A DNA stretch of 64,000 nucleotides from an uncultured Chloroflexia bacterium (GTDB taxonomy: Bacteria; Chloroflexota; Limnocylindria; Limnocylindrales; CSP1-4). The notes below the pieces were generated by a model. It made no database searches and was not told where the DNA came from. It was given only the letters and a program-made list of their open reading frames with translations. Location of the stretch: the NCBI GenBank assembly GCA_963833225.1, contig CAWHXD010000019.1, positions 736,001-800,000 of the forward strand, written 5' to 3'. How positions within the stretch are numbered: position 1 is the first letter of the stretch; each line of letters starts with the position of its first letter. Below, one piece after another: positions 15,810 through 25,086 of this stretch. The position numbers and the translations under genes are program-made.

Positions 15810-15864
15810 GTGCCGAACGTACCTTGCGATGACTTCCTGCGGCAACCGGACAGGCGGGTGGCGG

Positions 15865-15912
15865 CGGAGCGGTGTGACGCCGGAGCGGTGTGGCGGCGGA
15901 GCGGTGTGGCGC
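15865..15912. repeat. 16-bp tandem repeat x3
   Basis: CGGAGCGGTGTGRCGS at 15865, 15881, 15897. Confidence 0.85.
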
Positions 15913-15949
15913 CGGCCGACCAGACGCCTGTACCGCACACGCCATCCCC

Positions 15950-15977
15950 CAACCGCGCCACCCAGTGCGGGAAGCCT
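15950..15977 (+). repeat. degenerate copy of the 28-bp terminal IR
   Basis: CAACCGCGCCACCCAGTGCGGGAAGCCT, 24/28 to the copy at 16882. Confidence 0.8.
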
Positions 15978-16190
15978 ACGCGGTCTTTCGGCGGATGGCC
16001 TCGTCGTTCGCCTCGAACTGGGCATCAACGGAACTGCGCTCCGACGCAGCAAGCCGGTCCAACGTCGGGCTCGCGGTGGAGAACCGCACCAACTCGCAGC
16101 CTCACGCGCTACACGCGTGAGGCCGCGTCGCACCGCGAAGTTCGTGTCCGTCATGTCCGGCGTGGAGGGGAAGAGTTGGAGGTCGTGGCC

Positions 16191-16820
16191 TTGAGGATGC
16201 CGGCGCTCATGGTTGCGGTCGCGATCGTCGCCGTGCTGGCGGCCGCGACGCCCGCACTCGCAGGTCCATGCCCGAACACGCCTTGCGGTCTCTCTTGGCA
16301 GCAGTTCAATGCGGCGAGCCCCTGGATCGCGCTCGCCCGCTACGAAGGCGTGCATGACGGTCGCGCGCAGTTCGCCGTCATCGACGTCCTCAAGGGACGC
16401 CCCCACCGCTGGGCGTCCTCCAAGGACGACGCCTGGCTGTTCGGGTTCTTCGGTCGTCACCAGCGGATCGGCTCACGATGGCTGCTCGCCGGCGAGCCCC
16501 ACGAGCTCATCTGGACCTTCAAGGTCAGGCCCGACGGAACCGTGGAGAATTCCGAGGAAGGCGAGGGGTTCTTCGACGACTACCCGTACACCCTCGCCGG
16601 GTGGTATCGCGCCCTCGGCGGCTCGCCGCCGGACACAGCGACGATCCCCCAGCAGCCGACCCGAGGAAACGAGACGCCGATTGCGTTCCTCGTCGCGGCC
16701 TCTATTGCGGGGTTCGCGCTCGCCCTTCGCCGACGCCGACCTGGTGGGCTGGCCTCGTCCCCGAGGACCGGCGTCCTCACGCGTATAGCGCAAAGGCTCC
16801 CAGCTCGCCTTGACGAGTGA
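16191..16820 (+). CDS. secreted protein with C-terminal membrane anchor
   Basis: signal peptide ending ALA; PPDTAT + TM + RRRR tail; GGAGG RBS. Confidence 0.7.
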   Translation: MRMPALMVAVAIVAVLAAATPALAGPCPNTPCGLSWQQFNAASPWIALARYEGVHDGRAQFAVIDVLKGRPHRWASSKDDAWLFGFFGRHQRIGSRWLLAGEPHELIWTFKVRPDGTVENSEEGEGFFDDYPYTLAGWYRALGGSPPDTATIPQQPTRGNETPIAFLVAASIAGFALALRRRRPGGLASSPRTGVLTRIAQRLPARLDE

Positions 16821-17105
16821 CCTTCGTTCAGATCCGAGGGATCAGGCAGCGTGTTCTGGTCCTGCCTCACAAGGCATCCTGCAACTGCGCCACCCAGTGT
16901 GTGAAACCTGTTGGTTATGGACCATGCCATCGGCAGGGCAGCATCGGCAGGACGTCTGGCACCTTGACCGTGAGGCGATCCCGCCGGACGATCGCATCAG
17001 GGACAAGGAGACGAGAAGCTTGGTGATCGCTGCGGAGTCAGGCCCTCAGCGGGGGCGCGCCGGGCGAGCCGTGGCCTGCGGGCCTCGCCCGAGTCTCGAC
17101 GCACC

Positions 17106-17603
17106 GTGAACATGAACATGCTCACGGTGTTCCTCACGTTCTTCGCCGTGGCCGGTCCGCCGGTCGTTGAGGCGATGCGCGCCAGACGACGGCTCGATGA
17201 CGCCCTCGTCGCTCGCGGGTCCCTGCCGCGTCACCCGGGGCGTGGGCTCCCGCCGGGAATGTCGATGTTGGAGGCACTTCGCCTGTTCGTCGTAACCTGG
17301 GGCCGTCAAGACACGATCCGCGTGGACTTGGCGATCGAGGACTTCGAGCGCAGCAAGCAGGCCGCGAAGCTGGGTCACGATCTGCCAGAGGGCCGGGCGG
17401 CAGGGAGATGGACGATCGCAGCGTTGCTGCTCTGGCTTCTCGGTCTGCCGCTTGTCTTGATGCTCCTGCCGACGGCGGACCGCGTCGTGAGCGTTGTTGT
17501 CCCCGCATTCGCCGTCATCCGGGTCCCGCTCGTCATCGCCGGCTGCTGGGCCGTCTGGCACGCGATCCGCGTGGCACGCTCGGCCGCGTCAGGCGGCTCC
17601 TGA
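17106..17603 (+). CDS. hypothetical membrane protein (passenger gene)
   Basis: 165 aa, three hydrophobic segments, inside the IRs. Confidence 0.6.
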   Translation: MNMNMLTVFLTFFAVAGPPVVEAMRARRRLDDALVARGSLPRHPGRGLPPGMSMLEALRLFVVTWGRQDTIRVDLAIEDFERSKQAAKLGHDLPEGRAAGRWTIAALLLWLLGLPLVLMLLPTADRVVSVVVPAFAVIRVPLVIAGCWAVWHAIRVARSAASGGS

Positions 17604-17619
17604 GACCAATGGCTCCCCC

Positions 17620-19473
17620 AAAGAACGGCAGGTCGAGCTCGTCGTCGGGCGCGATGACCGCCACCTTCGGGATCGTCTTCGGCCGCATCTTCTTGCAGTC
17701 GGGGCAGGCCGGCGTCCCGAACGGCACCTTGACCCGGGCGCGGGGCGACATGCGGTAGGGCTTGTGGCGCGGGTCGGCGCATGACCAGGTAACGGTCTTC
17801 GCGTAGGTCGCCTTGATTGTGAGCGGCGTCCGGGGCAGGTTCGCGTCGGCGTCCCACTCGGGGACGAGGTCAGGCCGGACGCCGGCGACACTCTCGGCGG
17901 CGGTCGTCCGCGCCGTCGAGCACCGCTCGCAGCGCGTCCGGCGCTTCGTGCGCTGACCAACCTCGGCCCTCCACTCGTGCTGGCAGCGGTGGCACAGCCA
18001 GCGAGCGTCGTAGTCGGAGCCGGCGGTGACGACGGCGATGTCGCGCTCGTTGCGCTCGAAGTCCCAGTCGCGGGCGATCTCGGGGTAGTCGGTGAGCATG
18101 GTGCCCGCGACGTCGGCCGAGATCGTGCGCTGGCCCGGCTTGAACCGGAACGTGAGCGGCGGGAAGCCCAGCCGCCGGCGCTCCTCGTTGTCCTCGACGA
18201 TCCGCCGCCAGACCGACTTCACCTTCGCGCCCGCGAGGTAGGCCGGCCGCGCCTCCTGGTCCCGGTCGCGCGCCGCGAGCAGCAGCCGCGACAGCGATCG
18301 GAGCTCGGTGGGATCGTCCTCGCCGGCTTCCCAGTCGGGATTCACGAACGCTGGACCGACCTCGCGGAGGTGTTCCTTGATGATCGCCGCGAACTCGGCC
18401 TCGCCAGCCTGGCCCGAAACTCCGAGGCGCGCATGAGGTTCAGGACCATCTGCAAGCGGCGGGCGTTGCGGAACCGGAACCGCCGGCGGTCGGTCAGCTT
18501 GGTGTCGATGAAGTCGAGCAGGCCCTCGGCCGGGCTGTTGTTCCGGGGATGGTCCTTGAACCCGGGCACGCGCAGCGCGATCTGCGCCCGGACGCGGTCG
18601 GTGTTCGCGCCCATCCACTCGATGATGTTCCCGCAGTCGTGCTCGTCGGCGAACGTGAGCAGCGCCTCCCAGTCGTCCTCGGAGAGGAACGCCCGCCCGA
18701 GCAGCGGCTTGATCTCCTCGTTCTCGGCCGGCCAGCCGTCCTTCGCAGCCCAGGCTTCGAGCGCGCGTTTCAAGTGGAACTCGCAGGCCACGAACGTGGC
18801 GTTCGGCCAGCGGAGCATCGCCGCCTGCTTGATCGCCTTCGCGCCGTCCGCGACGACCCACTCGACATCGCCCGGCAGCTCGCCGAGGAAGTCCGACCAG
18901 GACTCGCGCGTCTCATCGGGCGAGAGGTGCAGCCCCCACGCCCGGAGCGGCCGCTTGGGGTCGTCGCCGCCGACTGCCGCGAGCACTGCACCGGCGCGCT
19001 TGTTGGGGTCCCAGCGCTCGCCGTGATCCACCGCGTCGTAGGGGAACAGATGCAGCGGCAGCGAATCGAGGACCAGGATCTTGGGCCAGCGCTTGGGGCC
19101 GAGCTTCTCGTCGATGAGCTCGCCGAACAGGTCGATGTAGCGACCCGAGAGCCCGAAGGCGCGGCTGGCGTAGCGGAACCCGTGCTCGTCGGTCTCGTAG
19201 CGCTGGGCGTCGTAGCGGACCTTCTGGGCCGCCTTGCGGCCGGAGTCGCCCGACCCGATCAACGCGAGGACCTTGCCCATCTCGTTCGCGCTCGTGTCGA
19301 AGCCGACCGGCGTGAGCGGTCCCTGTGCCACGCCCGGCACCACGTCGCAGGCCGAGCAGGCCACGCCCAACGGGTGGCCGCTGCACGCCGGCCGTCGCGG
19401 CTCGGAGAACGTGTGCGGCTTGATCGCCGGGTCGTCCGGGACGCACTGGAACCGGGGCCGGCGGAAGGGCCGG
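17620..19473 (-). pseudogene. Mutator/IS256-superfamily DDE transposase, main part, with two zinc-ribbon (DUF4379-like) domains
   Basis: LVLDS, VVADG, CEFH, NNSPAEG; after a frameshift near 18415: YPEIARDWD..WLCHRCQHEW..RCERC and PDLVPEWD..WSC..CPDC; 3' end approximate. Confidence 0.8.
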
Positions 19474-19711
19474 GGTCAAGTCCCAGCACGTGGTGTCACA
19501 CCTCGCGCCTGATCAACTTGCCATGAGCAACGGCTGGCTCGCCTCCTCGGTCGTGGTGACGGCATCGATGGCCGCCATGGTCTCGGGCCGGAAGTAGCGC
19601 CGGCCGTCCTGCCACTCGTCGTCCTGCTCGGCGAGGATCATGCCGACGAGGCGCAGCACGGACGCCCGATTGGGGAAGATCCCGACGACCCCGGTCCGGC
19701 GCTTGAAGCTC

Positions 19712-20798
19712 TCATGTCAAGTCCCCGGTCCGTCGGGCGTCCCGGAGCATGGTTCGGTAGATCGCGTCGGAGAGGTGGCGCTTGAGGACGCGCATAGCCT
19801 CTCGACGAGTGTGGCCATGTGCGCGGGCCTGGTCGTGGATCTGGCGGGCGCGGGGTTCGTAGCGGAGCTGGATCATCGCGATGCGGTAGATGGCGGCGTT
19901 GAGGCGCCGGTTGCCGCCGCGGGAGAGGCGGTGCCGGACGGGCGCGTTCTCGCCCTCGCCCGAGCTGGCCGGGATCGGCGCGGTGCCGTTGAACCGGGCA
20001 AAGCCGGCCTCTGTGAAGCGTCGGATGTCGCCGACCTCGACGATGATCTCGGCCGCGGCGCGGGGCGCGATGCCGACGAGCTCGGTGAGCGTCGACTTCG
20101 TCTCACGCGACCAGGGTGGTGAGTTCGGCGGTGGCCGCCTTGTCCTGCTCGAGGACGTCGCGCAGCATCGCCACGCGGTGCTCGATCAGCCGCAGCCGCA
20201 GGGCGACCGTGGGGTCGGTGACGCCGGAGGTGTCGAGCCGACGCAGCGAGTTCACGCGAGCGCTCACCGTCTTCGCTGGCCGGAGCTGGGCGCGCAGGTC
20301 CTCGGGCAGGTCGTGCACGAGGGCGTCGAGCTCGCCGAGGAGCTGGACGCGGACCTTGGTGAGGGAAGTGCGGGCGTTGTGCCACAGGGCGATCCGGTCG
20401 CGGACCGAGTCCGGCGCCGCCGATACCGCGTGCTTGAACGCCCGAGCGAGACGAGGGTTCGTCTGCGTCTCCGCGGCGATCCGGTGTGAGTCGAGCCGGT
20501 CGGACTTGCCCTCGTGACGGCCGCGCTGGCGGGCCGTCGTCTTGTGCGGCGGCACGTCGCGAACATCGCATCCGGCCTCGACGAGGAACTCGGCCAGGTG
20601 CCGGCCGAGCCCGCTGGCGCCCTCGACGCCCCAGCGATCGGCCGGGCCGAGCCCGGCAGCCCACGCCAGGCCGGCGTCATGCCCTTCGCGCGTGTTCGGG
20701 AAGTGGGCGTGTCCGAGCTCGCCGCCGCGCGAGTCGAGCACGGTCGCCGTGAACGTCTTGCGGTGCGGGTCGACGCCGACGATGTTGGGTGCCGTCAT
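19712..20798 (-). CDS. IS110 DEDD recombinase (frameshift near 20105)
   Basis: VGVDPH, GVEG, GKSDRLD; C-terminal GTAPIPASSG and GGNRRLN in the shifted frame. Confidence 0.9.
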
Positions 20799-20819
20799 GT
20801 AGTCGCCTCCAGGGTTCTG

Positions 20820-21030
20820 ACCGTCGTGGGGGAGGGACCGCGCGACGACATCCCAGTCGAGGGATCGACGCTCTCATCAGGTCAGCACGGTCCTCGGGCG
20901 ACCGTGCCGGGGTCGACACTTCAAACGGAACACCGCCACCAAATCGAGGTGGCGCCGGAGATCTCCTTCGAGTCAGGCCTCGGCACGGTCACCCACCGTA
21001 CGGGCCGCCGTCGCGGTCCTTCCGGCAGGG
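20820..21030 (-). ncRNA. putative IS110 bridge RNA
   Basis: non-coding leader with stem-loops and segments matching target (AAGGAGATC, CGTTTGA) and donor (ATGAGAGCGTC); ends approximate. Confidence 0.75.
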
Positions 21031-22195
21031 ACCACTTCAACACCAGGATCTCCTTGTTGAGCCGCTCGAGCGGGTTCGTGCTGCGGATCTTCGCCCGGTG
21101 GGTCTCAGGGAAGCTGAAGTGGGCGAGGAGATCGGGCTCGGCGTCGGCGAGCAGCTCGGCGACCGCCGCGAACCGCGGCCGGAGGCCCTCGAGGACCGCG
21201 TCGACCTGGCTGCGGGCCGACCGCTCGTCGGGCTGCTCGAACACCAGCCGGATGGCACTCGCGACCATGCTCCGGGCACTCCGGGGCACGAGGTCCTGGG
21301 CGTTGCGGGTGAAGTGCACCCGGCACCGCTGCCAGGAGGCTCCGAGCAGCTGCTCCCGGATCGCCTTCACCAGTCCGGCGTGGTCGTCGCTGATCACCAG
21401 GCGGACGCCCCGGAGGCCCCGCTCGACACAGGCCGCGGATGAAGGCTGGCCAGGCTGAGCCCTCGTCGTGCCCGGGCGACAGCTCGACTGCCAGCACCCG
21501 GCGCTCGCCACTCATCGCGACCCCGACCGCGACCAGCGCCGCCATCGACACCACCCGACCTGCCTCACGCACCTTGAGGTACGTGGCGTCGAGCCACAGG
21601 TACGGGTACGCGGTGTCACCCAGCGGCCGGCTGCGGAACGCCTCGACCTCGGCGTCGAGCGCCGCGCAGATGCGGCTGACCTCGCTCTTGCTGATGCCCT
21701 CGATGCCCAGGGCGCGGACGAGGTCGTCGACACGCCTCGTGGACACGCCCGACACGTACGCCTCCTGGACCACGGCGAGCAGCGCGCGCTCGGCTCGTCG
21801 CCGCGGCTCCAGCAGGCTCGGGAAGTACGAGCCGTCGCGGACTCGTGGGATCGCGAGCTCGACGGTGCCCACGCGGGTGTCCCAGCGCCGATCGCGGTAC
21901 CCGTTGCGACGGGTGAGGCGGCGCTCCGGATCCCGCTCGCCATGGGGGAGGCCGGTGAGCTCGGTCACCTCGGCCTCCATCACCGCCTGGGCGAGCACCC
22001 GCACGCCCTCGCGCAGAAAATCCTGGTCGCCCTCGGCGATCGCCTTGCGCACCGTGTCCTAGCACGGCCATCCTGTCCTCGGCCATCTCGGTGTTCTCCG
22101 TGTCGTCGGTTGCTAGTCCAACGACGCGAGGATGACGCGGTGGCCGTTTCCGTTCACGGCCTCAGCGCTGTGACACCAAGTCTGGGGACATGACC

Positions 22196-22364
22196 AGGGC
22201 CGGGAGCCCCAGTCCGGGTTGCCGTGGATGCGGATGGCGCCCCGGTGACCCTCGTCGCAGGCGATCGGCCGGTTCGGGATGGCGAGCGGCGGCCGGCCGC
22301 CGATCCGGCGGGCAGGCGGCGGAACGAGCGCGAGAGGCGGCGGGAGCGGGAGCGCGACGGCCAT
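22196..22364 (-). pseudogene. N-terminus of the Mutator-like transposase
   Basis: MAVALP..CDEGH..GSRP joins in frame to FRRPRFQC..H..GVACSAC when IS256 and one TSD copy are removed. Confidence 0.8.
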
Positions 22365-22538
22365 CGGCCAGACCGTGGCAGATCCGCGTGCCACCTTCCA
22401 TGACACGGGAGACCCACCGGGCCTACTTCATAACGAGGAGGTTTCACACACTGGGTGGCGCAGTTGTACAGCCACTCAACTGCGCCACCGGGTGTGGGAA
22501 ACCCAGCACCGGTCGTACTCCGGCGGTGCGGGACTTGC

Positions 22539-22581
22539 ATAATAGGATTGACAACAAGGCAAAAGTTGCATAGTCTATTAT
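22539..22581 (+). promoter_or_regulatory. sigma70 promoter and operator of hipBA
   Basis: TTGACA 22548, 17-bp spacer, TAGTCT 22571; flanked by ATAATAG/CTATTAT inverted repeat. Confidence 0.7.
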
Positions 22582-22583
22582 CC

Positions 22584-22901
22584 ATGCCTAACCGGACGCT
22601 TCCTCCGTACCCGCGCTACACCAGGCTCGCCGCCGACCTCGGTGAGCGGATCCGCCTCGCCCGGCTGCGCCGCCGCATGACTGCGGACCAGATGGCCGAA
22701 CGGATGGGGGTGACCCGTGTCACCTTGCACCGGCTGGAGCAGGGCAATCTGTCTGTCGGCTTCGGGGTTCTCGTCCGAGCGCTCGGGGTACTCGGTCTGG
22801 AGGAGGACATCGCGGCGATCGCGGCCGACGACGAACTCGGCAGGCAGCTCGCTGATGCGGCGGTCAAGCCGACCTATCGGCCGAGAAGGAACGCGCCGTG
22901 A
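22584..22901 (+). CDS. XRE-family HTH antitoxin (HipB-like)
   Basis: LGERIRLARLRRRMT..MAERMGVTRVTLHRLEQG; GTGA overlap with hipA. Confidence 0.88.
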   Translation: MPNRTLPPYPRYTRLAADLGERIRLARLRRRMTADQMAERMGVTRVTLHRLEQGNLSVGFGVLVRALGVLGLEEDIAAIAADDELGRQLADAAVKPTYRPRRNAP

Positions 22902-24136
22902 CCAGCAGCGAACTCGACACGGTCTCCGTGGAACTCGACGCAGCAGAACTCGGTGGTCCACTGGCCATCGGCACCCTGCGACGAACGCGCGCCCCGGGTG
23001 GCTCGCTCGTCGGCTTCGCCTACAGTGACGACTGGCTCGCCCGGCGTGACGCGTTCACGATCGACCCCCTGCACGGGCTCTTTCCAGGTGACCAGTGGCC
23101 GCGCGACGGGAAGATTGACCGCATCTTCACCGACGCGGCAACCGATCGCTGGGGCCGGACCCTGCTTGCCAGGCGCGAGGCACACCTCGCGCGGACCGAG
23201 CGGCGGCCACGGCGGACCCTCGACGAATGGGACTACCTCCTCAGGATCTCCGACGTCTCCCGGATGGGTGCGCTGCGCTTCCGCACGCCCGGCGGTCCCT
23301 ACCTCGACGAGAACGACGGCGTGCCGCCGATGACGCGCCTGCCGGAGCTGCTCTCTGCCGCCCACGAGATCGAGCGCCCCCGCAGTGCGAATTGGGAGGC
23401 CGAGAGCCTGGCCCTCCTGCTCGCCCCGGGCAGTTCGTTGGGCGGTGCTCGACCGAAGGCAAGCTACGTGGACCCCGACGGGTCGCTCTGGATCGCGAAG
23501 TTTCCCTCGCGGACCGACCAGCGCGACATGGCCACATGCGAGTACGTGCTGAACGAGATCGCGGCTGCGGCCGGGATCGACGTGCCCGAGCATCGGCTCC
23601 TGAGCATCGGCGAGGGTCGCCATTCGTTCGCCGCAAAGCGATTCGACCGGACCCCATCAACCCGACGTCTCTATGCCTCGTCAATGACGCTCCTCTCGCG
23701 CCGCGACAGGGAGGAGGCGAGCTACCTCGACATCGCCCTCGCGATCGCGGACCACGGGGAGACTGGCGCGATCAACGACATGCTCGCGGAGATGTTCCGG
23801 CGCGTGGTGTTCAACGTCGCCGTCGCTCATCGCGATGACCATCTCCGCAACCACGGGTTCATCAGGACGCCCCGCGGCTGGCGGCTGGCGCCGGCGTTCG
23901 ATCTGAACCCGATGCCCGAGATCCCCGAGCATGCGCTCGCGATCGACGACGCCGATCACACCGGAGACCTTGACCTCGTGTCGAGCACGGCCGCGTTCTA
24001 CCGCCTGCCCGAGCAGCGGGCGTCCGCAGTCATCGACGAGGTCATGACGGCGGTCAAGGCGTGGAAGACGCCAGCCCGGAAGGTGGGGCTCGGCCCGGTC
24101 GAGATGGACACGATCGCCGAGGCGGTGGAACGGTGA
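22898..24136 (+). CDS. hipA: HipA-family kinase toxin
   Basis: GSSLGGARPK P-loop, WIAKFP, RFDR, DDHLRNHGF, LAPAFD. Confidence 0.93.
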   Translation: MTSSELDTVSVELDAAELGGPLAIGTLRRTRAPGGSLVGFAYSDDWLARRDAFTIDPLHGLFPGDQWPRDGKIDRIFTDAATDRWGRTLLARREAHLARTERRPRRTLDEWDYLLRISDVSRMGALRFRTPGGPYLDENDGVPPMTRLPELLSAAHEIERPRSANWEAESLALLLAPGSSLGGARPKASYVDPDGSLWIAKFPSRTDQRDMATCEYVLNEIAAAAGIDVPEHRLLSIGEGRHSFAAKRFDRTPSTRRLYASSMTLLSRRDREEASYLDIALAIADHGETGAINDMLAEMFRRVVFNVAVAHRDDHLRNHGFIRTPRGWRLAPAFDLNPMPEIPEHALAIDDADHTGDLDLVSSTAAFYRLPEQRASAVIDEVMTAVKAWKTPARKVGLGPVEMDTIAEAVER

Positions 24137-24254
24137 GACCGGCTTGCCAGCCGCCGTGCTCCTCGAGATGGCCACGGTCTCGCGCGATCGTTCGACATGG
24201 CGTCGATGCCGAGGTTTCCCACACCCGGTGGCGCAGTTGGGGCATCCCTCGCGC

Positions 24255-24284
24255 TTGACATGTGACTCGTTGGTCACCTATTGT
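24255..24284 (+). promoter_or_regulatory. sigma70 promoter with ArsR-type operator
   Basis: TTGACA-N18-TATTGT; GTGAC-N6-GTCAC palindrome in the spacer; ATG 7 nt after the -10. Confidence 0.7.
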
Positions 24285-24291
24285 CTCCGGC

Positions 24292-25086
24292 ATGGACGAC
24301 GAGGTGTTTCGCGCGCTGGCCGACGCCAGTCGCCGGACGCTGCTCGACCGGCTCTTCGAGCGCGATGGCCAGACGCTTGGAGAGCTGGAGGCCGCGCTGC
24401 CGGCGATGACCCGGTTCGGCGTGATGAAGCACCTCCGCGTCCTCGAGGCGGCGAACCTCGTGACCAGCCGCAAGGTCGGTCGGGAGCGCCACCACTACCT
24501 CAACCCCGTCCCCATCCGACGGGTCCACGACCGGTGGCTGGACCGCTACGCGATCCGTGCCGCCGACCTGCTCGACGACTTCAAGACCCTGCTGGAGATC
24601 GATCCGATGACGTCCCCCGACACTGCCGACACCGCCGCGACGGCCGCTGAGGCCGCTCCACGCCACGTCTTCGCCACGTTCATCCGCGCCACGCCCGAGG
24701 CGATCTGGCGCGCGCTCACCGAGTCCGACTTCACGACCCGCTACTGGTACGGCTCCACCGTCCACTCCGAGTGGACCGTCGGTGCTCCATGGGAGCTCCA
24801 CACGGCAAGCGGCGACCTCGGGATCACGGGCGAGGTGCTCGAGGCCGACCCGCCGCACCGGCTCGTTGTCAGCTACAAGCAGGCCTGGGGCGGGGGCGAC
24901 GAGCCGCTGTCGCGCGTCACGTTCGAGGTCGGGAGCGCGGGCCCGGGCGTCCAGAAGCTGACGGTGGTCCACGAGACCGAGCCCGGCACCTCGACCCAGA
25001 TCGCCGACGTCGCCGCCGGCTGGCCGTTCATCCTCGCGGGGCTCAAGACCCTGCTCGAGACCGGCGAGCCCATGGCGGCCGGCTGA
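24292..25086 (+). CDS. ArsR regulator-SRPBCC (AHSA1) fusion
   Basis: FRALADASRR..MKHLRVLEAANLV; IRATPEAIWRALT..GWPFILAGLKTLLETG. Confidence 0.9.
   Translation: MDDEVFRALADASRRTLLDRLFERDGQTLGELEAALPAMTRFGVMKHLRVLEAANLVTSRKVGRERHHYLNPVPIRRVHDRWLDRYAIRAADLLDDFKTLLEIDPMTSPDTADTAATAAEAAPRHVFATFIRATPEAIWRALTESDFTTRYWYGSTVHSEWTVGAPWELHTASGDLGITGEVLEADPPHRLVVSYKQAWGGGDEPLSRVTFEVGSAGPGVQKLTVVHETEPGTSTQIADVAAGWPFILAGLKTLLETGEPMAAG

Follow-up and report, generated by a model that had tools for sequence, protein, structure and literature searches.

In a stretch of 64,000 nucleotides (hereafter the window) from an uncultured Chloroflexia bacterium of the order Limnocylindrales (assembly GCA_963833225.1, contig CAWHXD010000019.1), positions 22477-24239 hold a hipBA-like gene pair enclosed by two inverted repeats (IRs). 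We regard it as likely that this segment is a mobile insertion cassette, belonging to an undescribed, promoter-targeting lineage of Mutator-like elements whose transposase is a protein of about 663 amino acids, with a MULE domain and DUF4379 zinc fingers. It shares its repeats with an element that encodes such a transposase, it contains no transposase itself, and the unit is present at different sites. The remaining trait of mobile insertion cassettes, a target duplication proper to the unit, is absent from 22477-24239. All window coordinates refer to its forward strand. G000 denotes the genome from which the window comes, other G codes denote other genomes, and L codes are loci extracted by scans.

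The cassette and its two genes

The cassette comprises the following features:

22477-22503, forward strand: IR-C, left terminal inverted repeat of the hipBA cassette, complementary to 24213-24239 at 27 of 27 positions
22537-22583, forward strand: AT-rich, conserved promoter- or operator-like region, read from the sequence and from an alignment of three cassette copies
22584-22901, forward strand: hipB-like gene for a helix-turn-helix (HTH) antitoxin or repressor of 105 amino acids (Pfam HTH_31, E 1.3e-10)
22898-24136, forward strand: hipA-like gene for a Ser/Thr kinase toxin of 412 amino acids (Pfam HipA_C, E 5.4e-47)
24213-24239, reverse strand: IR-D, right terminal inverted repeat of the hipBA cassette, lying towards the target promoter

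The same 27-mer, CAACTGCGCCACCGGGTGTGGGAAACC, is read at 22477-22503 on the forward strand and at 24213-24239 on the reverse strand, with no mismatch between the arms. The repeats of the neighbouring element, IR-B (16882-16908, forward) and IR-E (22440-22466, reverse), are likewise identical to each other at 27 of 27 positions, and differ from the IR-C/IR-D pair at three. None of 100 dinucleotide shuffles produced any match to the repeat. When the whole assembly was scanned with six mismatches allowed (20 contigs, 3.89 Mb, about 71% G+C), only five copies appeared, all of them clustered at 15950-24239 of the window. Between IR-C and IR-D, coding signal and Pfam matches come from hipB and hipA only, and no other open reading frame (ORF) has a coding-type G+C content at third codon positions. 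The left repeat is 80 nt from the hipB ATG and the hipA stop codon is 76 nt from the right repeat, and neither interval contains a remnant of a transposase.

The promoter-like motif upstream of hipB consists of TTGACA at 22548-22553, a spacer of 17 nt and the -10-like box TAGTCT at 22571-22576, with 9 of 12 positions agreeing with the consensus. A strict promoter scanner did not call this cassette-internal promoter (22548-22576), which falls in the best-conserved non-coding stretch (22537-22583) across the three cassette copies. Because the hipB ATG comes only 7 nt past the -10-like box, the hipBA messenger, judged from its sequence, may be leaderless. A preliminary description of this DNA had proposed a segment with its own identical pair of repeats, differing at three positions from that of its neighbour and filled only with a promoter, an HTH antitoxin and a HipA kinase; this anatomy stands in every part.

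HipBA of Escherichia coli is a type II toxin-antitoxin system. The window pair resembles such systems in its HipA_C kinase, endowed with the HRDDHxRN catalytic and DL metal-binding motifs, and in the HTH gene that overlaps it upstream: the GTG start of hipA shares 4 nt (GTGA) with the hipB stop. The motifs HRDDHLRNHG and PAFDL of HipA align to those of the solved HipT. The likeness is nevertheless distant, as the protein matches HipT of Legionella (PDB 8ezr) at E 5.8e-8 only and reaches 36 bits against the YjjJ model, the cut-off of which is 401 bits; its N-terminal 178 residues have no match in Pfam. HipB obtains 33.6 bits with the NCBIfam model couple_hipB, under the cut-off of that model. 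With PADLOC, HipB, HipA and four other cargo proteins of the family gave weak matches of HTH type and one weak match of kinase type, none of them specific, which speaks neither for nor against a role in defence. In all three pairwise comparisons of cassette copies, the ratio of nonsynonymous to synonymous substitution (dN/dS) of hipA is 0.16-0.17 over 412 codons, with dS of 0.24-0.34. The gene is under purifying selection, and the two products presumably act as a toxin-antitoxin pair.

The parent element and its transposase

To the left of the cassette lies a larger element bounded by the related repeats:

16882-22466, reverse strand: dead parent element, with arms IR-B (16882-16908) and IR-E (22440-22466), delineated by its repeats and by tblastn
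22310-22173, reverse strand: parent transposase, residues 19-64 (tblastn)
19445-18420, reverse strand: parent transposase, residues 64-405 (tblastn)
18429-17653, reverse strand: parent transposase, residues 402-660 (tblastn)
17109-17603, forward strand: small membrane-protein ORF inside the parent element
19474-22195, reverse strand: nested IS256-type element within the parent's transposase gene, with repeats of its own of about 27 nt (NCBIfam IS256)

A scan for the repeat with a degenerate pattern, applied to one genome per species (185,579 species), returned 18 loci, 16 of which are in metagenome-assembled genomes labelled Chloroflexota, Chloroflexia, Limnocylindria or Anaerolineaceae; the remaining two, outliers with 5-6 mismatches, lack a partner repeat. 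A complete element, 2617 bp long, is found at locus L019, with repeat arms matching at 26 of 27 positions, a perfect 9-bp direct repeat and an intact ORF of 663 amino acids. The same 27-mer, with 0-3 mismatches, bounds L019 and the broken element of the window. The L019 protein contains two DUF4379 domains (treble-clef zinc fingers, C-terminal, E 3.7e-20) and a Mutator-type DDE domain that is weak yet over threshold (Transposase_mut 28.1 bits for a cut-off of 21; MULE E 1.7e-4). A tblastn search with this protein recovers it from the window in three pieces on the minus strand, at 65-79% identity, and the neighbour at 16882-22466 is therefore a dead copy of an L019-type element. A Mutator-superfamily DDE transposase of about 663 amino acids, carrying two DUF4379 fingers, would then act in trans on the ends of the cassette. 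In a collection of 5.8 billion proteins it has 28 homologues, six of them named 'hypothetical protein' and 22 bearing no name at all.

The preliminary description had the cassette mobilized in trans by a Mutator-like transposase. As to the kind of enzyme, this holds in so far as the cognate enzyme is a distant member of the Mutator superfamily (MULE with DUF4379), but not for the strong Mutator gene next door. The latter, a PF00872 gene at 22052-20921, was discarded as the mobilising enzyme: it sits in an intruder, the nested element of 2.7 kb, which has other repeats and its own duplication, and is therefore not the enzyme for the cassette repeats. The intruder is flanked by a perfect 8-bp duplication, AGGGCCGG (19466-19473 and 22196-22203), its first piece scores 169.7 bits with the NCBIfam IS256 model, over the cut-off, and an IS110-type insert at about 19707-21046 interrupts it in turn. 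The genus contains the intruder in multiple copies. The same nested structure of IS256 and IS110 types, 2.7 kb long, is found in another species (L054, G024:C8) at 86% identity, and several genomes contain multiple copies of the IS256-type element without the insert. The nested pair may travel together.

G000 has other transposase genes beyond the window. At C19:145437-148449, an intact element, distantly related to this one, encodes an ORF of 710 amino acids, 25% identical to the family transposase, and another of 233 amino acids, between perfect 24-nt repeats (ATCCCTGTTGTATCTGCGTTGGAA); the 8-bp duplication around them, TGGCGCGC, is also perfect. The element adjoins what appears to be the 3' end of a tRNA gene. 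Two ISKra4-like transposase genes, at C6:148829-149986 and C7:31422-32579, have identical scores of 147 bits (cut-off 205) and are probably two copies of another element.

Insertion at the ArsR/AHSA1 promoter

The cassette ends just upstream of the promoter of a gene coding for an ArsR-type HTH domain and an AHSA1 domain. The features of importance here are:

16873-16880: left copy of the target duplication of the composite (parent element and cassette), GGCATCCT, preceded at 16862-16873 by the native flank CTGCCTCACAAG
22467-22476: spacer between IR-E and IR-C, 10 nt, t ACAGCCAC t, with a geometry of 1+8+1
24241-24248: right copy of the target duplication, GGCATCCC
24255-24284, forward strand: target promoter of the ArsR-HTH/AHSA1 gene, TTGACA, 18 nt, TATTGT

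Compared across all 70 genomes of the genus, a region of 16 kb keeps both its flanks linked in G006 and G014: the left is conserved to about 13592 and the right from 24250 on. The interval between the flanks is variable; it spans 1.5 kb in G006 and reaches about 7 kb in G014 and, in the window, 10.7 kb. Upstream of the orthologous ArsR/AHSA1 promoter, G014 reads CTGCCTCACAAG-CGGCTATCCCGTGC-TTGACA, which is the empty site. At the insertion, the window reads CTGCCTCACAAGGCATCCTG followed by IR-B on the left, and IR-D followed by GGGCATCCCTCGCGCTTGACA on the right. Put otherwise, the native 12-mer CTGCCTCACAAG runs directly into GGCATCCT-g-IR-B, and IR-D is continued by g-GGCATCCC-TCGCGC-TTGACA. 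The -35 box begins 15 nt after IR-D, and the gene itself extends from an ATG at 24292 to 25086.

The composite 16882-24239 (7358 bp) is thus framed by an 8-bp duplication matching at 7 of 8 positions. The dead parent taken alone is without a duplication (direct repeat 4/8). Because the empty site of G014 and the 7/8 duplication bound the composite, the inserted piece is 16882-24239, dead parent and cassette together, which entered as a single piece 15 nt upstream of the -35 box of the ArsR/AHSA1 promoter.

The junction inside the composite would have arisen earlier. Its 1+8+1 spacer is the geometry expected when two elements share one 8-bp duplication, yet the spacer 8-mer ACAGCCAC agrees with the outer duplication GGCATCCY at three of eight positions only, by our own reading. 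Being unlike the present duplication, it implies that the IR-E/IR-C junction predates the arrival at this site. Sequential insertion at the present site, of the cassette beside the element or the reverse, is ruled out by this 3/8 spacer and by the lack of a duplication for either unit. The junction may have been formed earlier by two successive promoter-targeted insertions at a former site, sharing one 8-bp duplication; alternatively, it may have begun as a circle-type junction, with subsequent movement via the outer ends.

Related units in other genomes

The family extends to units with quite different cargo. For each of the nine two-ended, repeat-bounded units in other genomes, the best direct repeat was scored: five (L009, L011, L016, L019 and L047) have perfect direct repeats of 8-9 bp, two have imperfect ones (L008, 7/9; L006, 6/9), and none is seen in the last two, L013 and L020, the right repeats of which are weak. 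An exact TTGACA is present 13-15 nt outward of 12 of 37 distinct repeat ends, where chance would give, by our own estimate at this base composition, something of the order of 1e-4 per end. All seven units with a direct repeat of at least 6/9 have this hexamer at 13-15 nt past exactly one of their ends, and it is also found past IR-D of the window. From the flanks of the repeat ends we count at least nine different promoters as targets. The family inserts 13-15 nt upstream of -35 boxes of sigma-70 type, making target duplications of 8-9 bp.

The units with passengers are:

L006: 930 bp, no transposase, DUF2975 membrane protein and HTH_26 regulator, direct repeat 6/9
L008: 580 bp, no transposase, lipoprotein-like ORF, direct repeat 7/9
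L009: 530 bp, no transposase, SnoaL-like protein, direct repeat 8/8
L011: 882 bp, no transposase, DUF4760 protein, direct repeat 8/8
L047 (in G083): 1370 bp, no transposase, lipoprotein-like ORF, direct repeat 8/8
L016: 2947 bp, an element with passengers, namely a broken transposase and a DUF2975-HTH pair, direct repeat 9/9

The family takes three forms: autonomous element, element with passenger genes, and transposase-less cassette of one or two genes. The preliminary description had left room for other cargo between the same repeats, and this is indeed what other genomes contain, with units of DUF2975 and HTH, SnoaL-like, DUF4760 and lipoprotein-like type.

The commonest cargo beside the repeats is the DUF2975 membrane protein with its HTH_26 regulator of 71 amino acids. 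This pair adjoins a repeat in 15 of 36 scanned loci, a figure that probably includes duplicates of one place (for example L005/L043 and L016/L017) and in which the pairing is our own reading. Loci with the pair are L005-L007, L010, L012, L014, L016, L022, L038, L040, L042, L043, L045 and L072.

The type of promoter found at the window site (TTGACA, a gtgact...ggtcac palindrome and a TATTGT-like -10 box, upstream of ArsR-HTH/AHSA1 genes) is occupied elsewhere by other cassettes (L008, L011 and L046), with lipoprotein-like and DUF4760 cargo in other species. The ArsR-HTH/AHSA1 promoter is an insertion hot spot.

Copies of hipBA elsewhere

Homologues of HipA are scattered. At E <= 1e-20 they appear in 7 of 24 other genomes of the genus and in none of 16 genomes of the order's second family; at E <= 1e-120, in 10 of 401 genomes of the class, that of the window included. 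Two rows among the distant homologues are weaker, a protein of 32% identity in G012 and a fragment in G010, 48% identical over residues 4-180. At the level of the class, L082 and L085 (G244:C2 and C4) are two copies of the hipA region with 96.5-98.5% identity, within a duplication that exceeds the extracted loci.

Two close copies deserve attention. The first, in another species (G043), matches window positions 22478-24146 with 88.4% DNA identity (HipA 90%). Homology begins at the second base of the left repeat, still present save for one indel and one substitution, and the copy sits directly upstream of the lexA promoter. In G000 the flanks of the corresponding lexA site are 16 nt apart (C5:55694/55711) and the site is empty, so the G043 cassette is an insertion there. 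The lexA promoter of G043 (L065, 5240-5300) comprises TTGACA, the palindrome CGAACGTACGTTC, SOS-box-like by our own reading, and TATAGT; on that reading, the cassette would be right at an SOS-regulated promoter. The second copy, on the metagenome contig L072, is 89.6% identical, and its right flank, ArsR/AHSA1, is shared with the window. Its left repeat is decayed, and of the right one the outer 13 nt alone are retained. A DUF2975-HTH pair stands immediately upstream of its hipBA.

The preliminary description asked whether close hipBA homologues elsewhere have the same repeats; the left repeat of G043 (88% DNA identity) and the outer 13 nt of the right repeat of L072 speak for it, the distant homologues do not. 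We found neither a syntenic hipBA devoid of the repeats nor a lack of other repeat-bounded cassettes, the two outcomes that would have told against that description.

A solitary repeat

A fifth copy of the repeat had escaped the preliminary description:

15950-15976, forward strand: IR-A, solitary left-type repeat, five mismatches to IR-C

Its outer flank of 17 nt resembles that of IR-B (15933-15977 compared with 16865-16909, 80% over 45 nt), and the 8-mer that adjoins it, GCCATCCC, also resembles the target duplication. Pairing of IR-A with a hidden right repeat was rejected, as relaxed patterns detected none in 15977-16881; the same interval has no ORF of coding-type composition. Just upstream of IR-A, at 15858-15915, are three overlapping copies of a repeat with a period of 16 nt (GTGGCGGCGGAGCGGT-like). 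IR-A may have come about by duplication of a junction, or may be what is left of an earlier insertion at this hot spot.

Alternative explanations

Several observations weigh against the proposal that the cassette is a mobile unit of this family. Taken alone, 22477-24239 has a best direct repeat of 4/9 and no target duplication of its own, and we found no solitary hipBA cassette endowed with one. In G043 the right repeat is not confidently recognizable, the alignments being compatible with a decayed repeat or with native intergenic DNA, and no duplication is definable; relocation there could therefore have used another route. The more distant hipA homologues (54-73% identity, together with the two weaker rows in G012 and G010) have no repeat nearby in the loci scanned, that is, 11 loci of relatives, seven with more flank (two the same places), L073 and nine loci at the level of the class. 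As L072 shares the right junction of the window yet has decayed repeats, the insertion at the ArsR/AHSA1 promoter may be old, which sits oddly with window arms identical at 27 of 27 positions, given the dS of hipA. With tblastn, no intact cognate transposase is found in this assembly, which is 86% complete, so the cassette is probably immobile at present; the only distant relative in the assembly, 25% identical, has different repeats. The cognate transposase has no match with the NCBIfam ISKra4 model NF033572, which the searched library does contain, even at E 10, and reaches 25 bits with the IS256 model, for a cut-off of 150. BLASTP against the ISKra4-like protein of G000 itself gives E 0.099, and by sequence the enzyme is a member of neither the ISKra4 nor the IS256 family. 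Finally, the scheme gives no place to IR-A with its look-alike flank. The preliminary description had the cassette mobilized as a unit: its lack of a transposase and its transposon-end repeats agree with this, but the missing duplication and the insertion of a composite at this site do not.

That missing duplication would be natural if a resident hipBA operon had been flanked by two insertions of the element, the bodies of which were later deleted, so that the unit never moved as such. Both arms belong to the same sequence variant, as expected if one end was used twice, and the hipA homologues scattered in genus and class, at the frequencies given above, are without repeats. Against this history, which we hold to be unlikely, the empty site of G014 places the arrival of hipBA inside the 16882-24239 insertion, and the homology with G043 sets in right at the left repeat, in a different locus where G000 has an empty site. 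Furthermore, the short intervals between repeats and operon retain nothing of a transposase, and sister cassettes with perfect duplications indicate that the family moves such units.

Somewhat less credit still can be given to a spread of hipBA by homologous or illegitimate recombination and horizontal transfer at a variable hot spot, with the repeats as passive hitch-hikers. The variable length of the interval between the conserved flanks would fit, as would the decay of one or both repeats in the G043 and L072 copies and a homology to G014 that ends left of the 12-nt native flank. Yet the 7/8 duplication of the composite, at the distance from a -35 box that the family prefers, is a signature of transposition and not of recombination, and the homology with G043 starts at the second base of the repeat. 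It is more improbable again that the 27-nt repeats are, at this place, a regulatory palindrome or a site for protein binding, by HipB or some other HTH protein, rather than transposon ends. They are perfect and close to an operon that encodes an HTH protein; the same sequence, in other species, bounds a transposase element and unrelated cargo with target duplications, and the conserved AT-rich, operator-like region of the cassette is elsewhere, at 22537-22583.

Relation to known systems

Our preferred explanation, a mobile insertion cassette of a Mutator-like lineage, joins themes that are already known: mobile insertion cassettes, toxin-antitoxin passengers on Tn3 transposons, and promoter-targeting Mutator-like elements. 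MIC231 of the Bacillus cereus group is a mobile insertion cassette derived from IS231. The qnrD and qnrS2 cassettes are reportedly further examples (PMC3913671 and PMC5444012). Tn3-derived mobile insertion cassettes with effector genes are reported from Xanthomonas (PMC4337579), and cassettes of this kind are also in print in PMC4133298. The window cassette resembles them in having passengers between the terminal repeats of an element, no internal transposase, a cognate autonomous element elsewhere and a presumed movement in trans. It differs by a parent from the Mutator superfamily, and not of IS4 or Tn3 type, by its promoter targeting and its hipBA cargo, and also in that the window copy lacks its own duplication and forms a composite together with its dead parent.

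The sections of Guerillot et al. (2014, PMC3942029) that bear on prokaryotic Mutator-like elements describe them as having inverted repeats 18-39 bp long with a terminal C, being flanked by direct repeats of 8-9 bp and forming circle junctions of 6-10 bp. According to the same sections, TnGBS and related insertion sequences target sites 15-17 nt upstream of sigmaA promoters, and ISLre2 and ISKra4 also insert upstream of promoters, a range of 13-17 bp being given for the transposable elements marked in figure 2 of that paper. The paper connects promoter targeting with an aspartate-containing motif located between domains N1 and N2. As far as this account goes, the family described here shares with them a distant MULE/IS256-like DDE domain, near-perfect repeats beginning with C, 8-9-bp direct repeats, insertion at a constant spacing (13-17 nt) ahead of -35 boxes and, in some members, passenger genes; their circle junctions, too, resemble the 10-nt spacer between IR-E and IR-C. 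Its transposase differs in being longer (about 663 amino acids) and in its two C-terminal DUF4379 fingers. With the ISKra4 group (p-MULT 4) it has in common the DDE domain, the traits of repeats and duplication and the insertion upstream of promoters, but not the match to NF033572. Transposase-less cassettes are not described in the sections of PMC3942029 referred to here.

Toxin-antitoxin pairs as passengers are documented for transposons of the Tn3 family, where Lima-Mendez et al. (10.1101/848275) propose a stabilizing role for type II systems. Their abstract reports at least six pairs; the sub-headings name five, ParE, PIN_3, Gp49, PIN and HEPN, and HipA is not among these. Tn4662a carries tad-ata (PMC4133298). 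The likeness is that of a type II pair travelling with a DDE transposon. The difference is that the Tn3 pair is one part of an autonomous transposon and neighbours res and the resolvase, whereas the window pair is the sole content of a cassette. Among the titles and openings of abstracts listed in our literature search, none described a hipBA cassette of the present kind or a transposase bearing DUF4379.

Significance

Gene-carrying cassettes without a transposase are rarely documented, mostly with parents of IS4 or Tn3 type; here, a whole set of them is found in uncultured Chloroflexota. The hipBA cassette alone makes a modest addition to known biology, and the family behind it is more interesting. 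The preference of this lineage for sites at a constant spacing ahead of promoters may account for the shuffling of single genes into regulatory hot spots, of which the ArsR/AHSA1 and lexA promoters are examples.

Beyond this, we offer tentatively, and with more doubt than conviction, the idea of a promoter-docking system of gene cassettes, in which the MULE-DUF4379 transposase would shuttle cassettes of one or two genes, be they for toxin-antitoxin pairs or for membrane, lipoprotein-like or small enzyme-fold proteins, to a fixed site upstream of promoters, and stacked arrays would move as composites. If this were true, repeated hits on one promoter would stack cassettes into arrays with junctions of the form repeat, 8 bp, repeat, and the IR-E/IR-C junction of the window and the tandem of DUF2975-HTH and hipBA in L072 would be two such arrays. 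This would amount to an integron-like capture and stacking of genes, achieved by a DDE transposase and not by an integrase. The system seems well suited to probing mobilization in trans, the role of a toxin-antitoxin pair in a non-autonomous element, and the part that DUF4379 fingers may take in promoter targeting.

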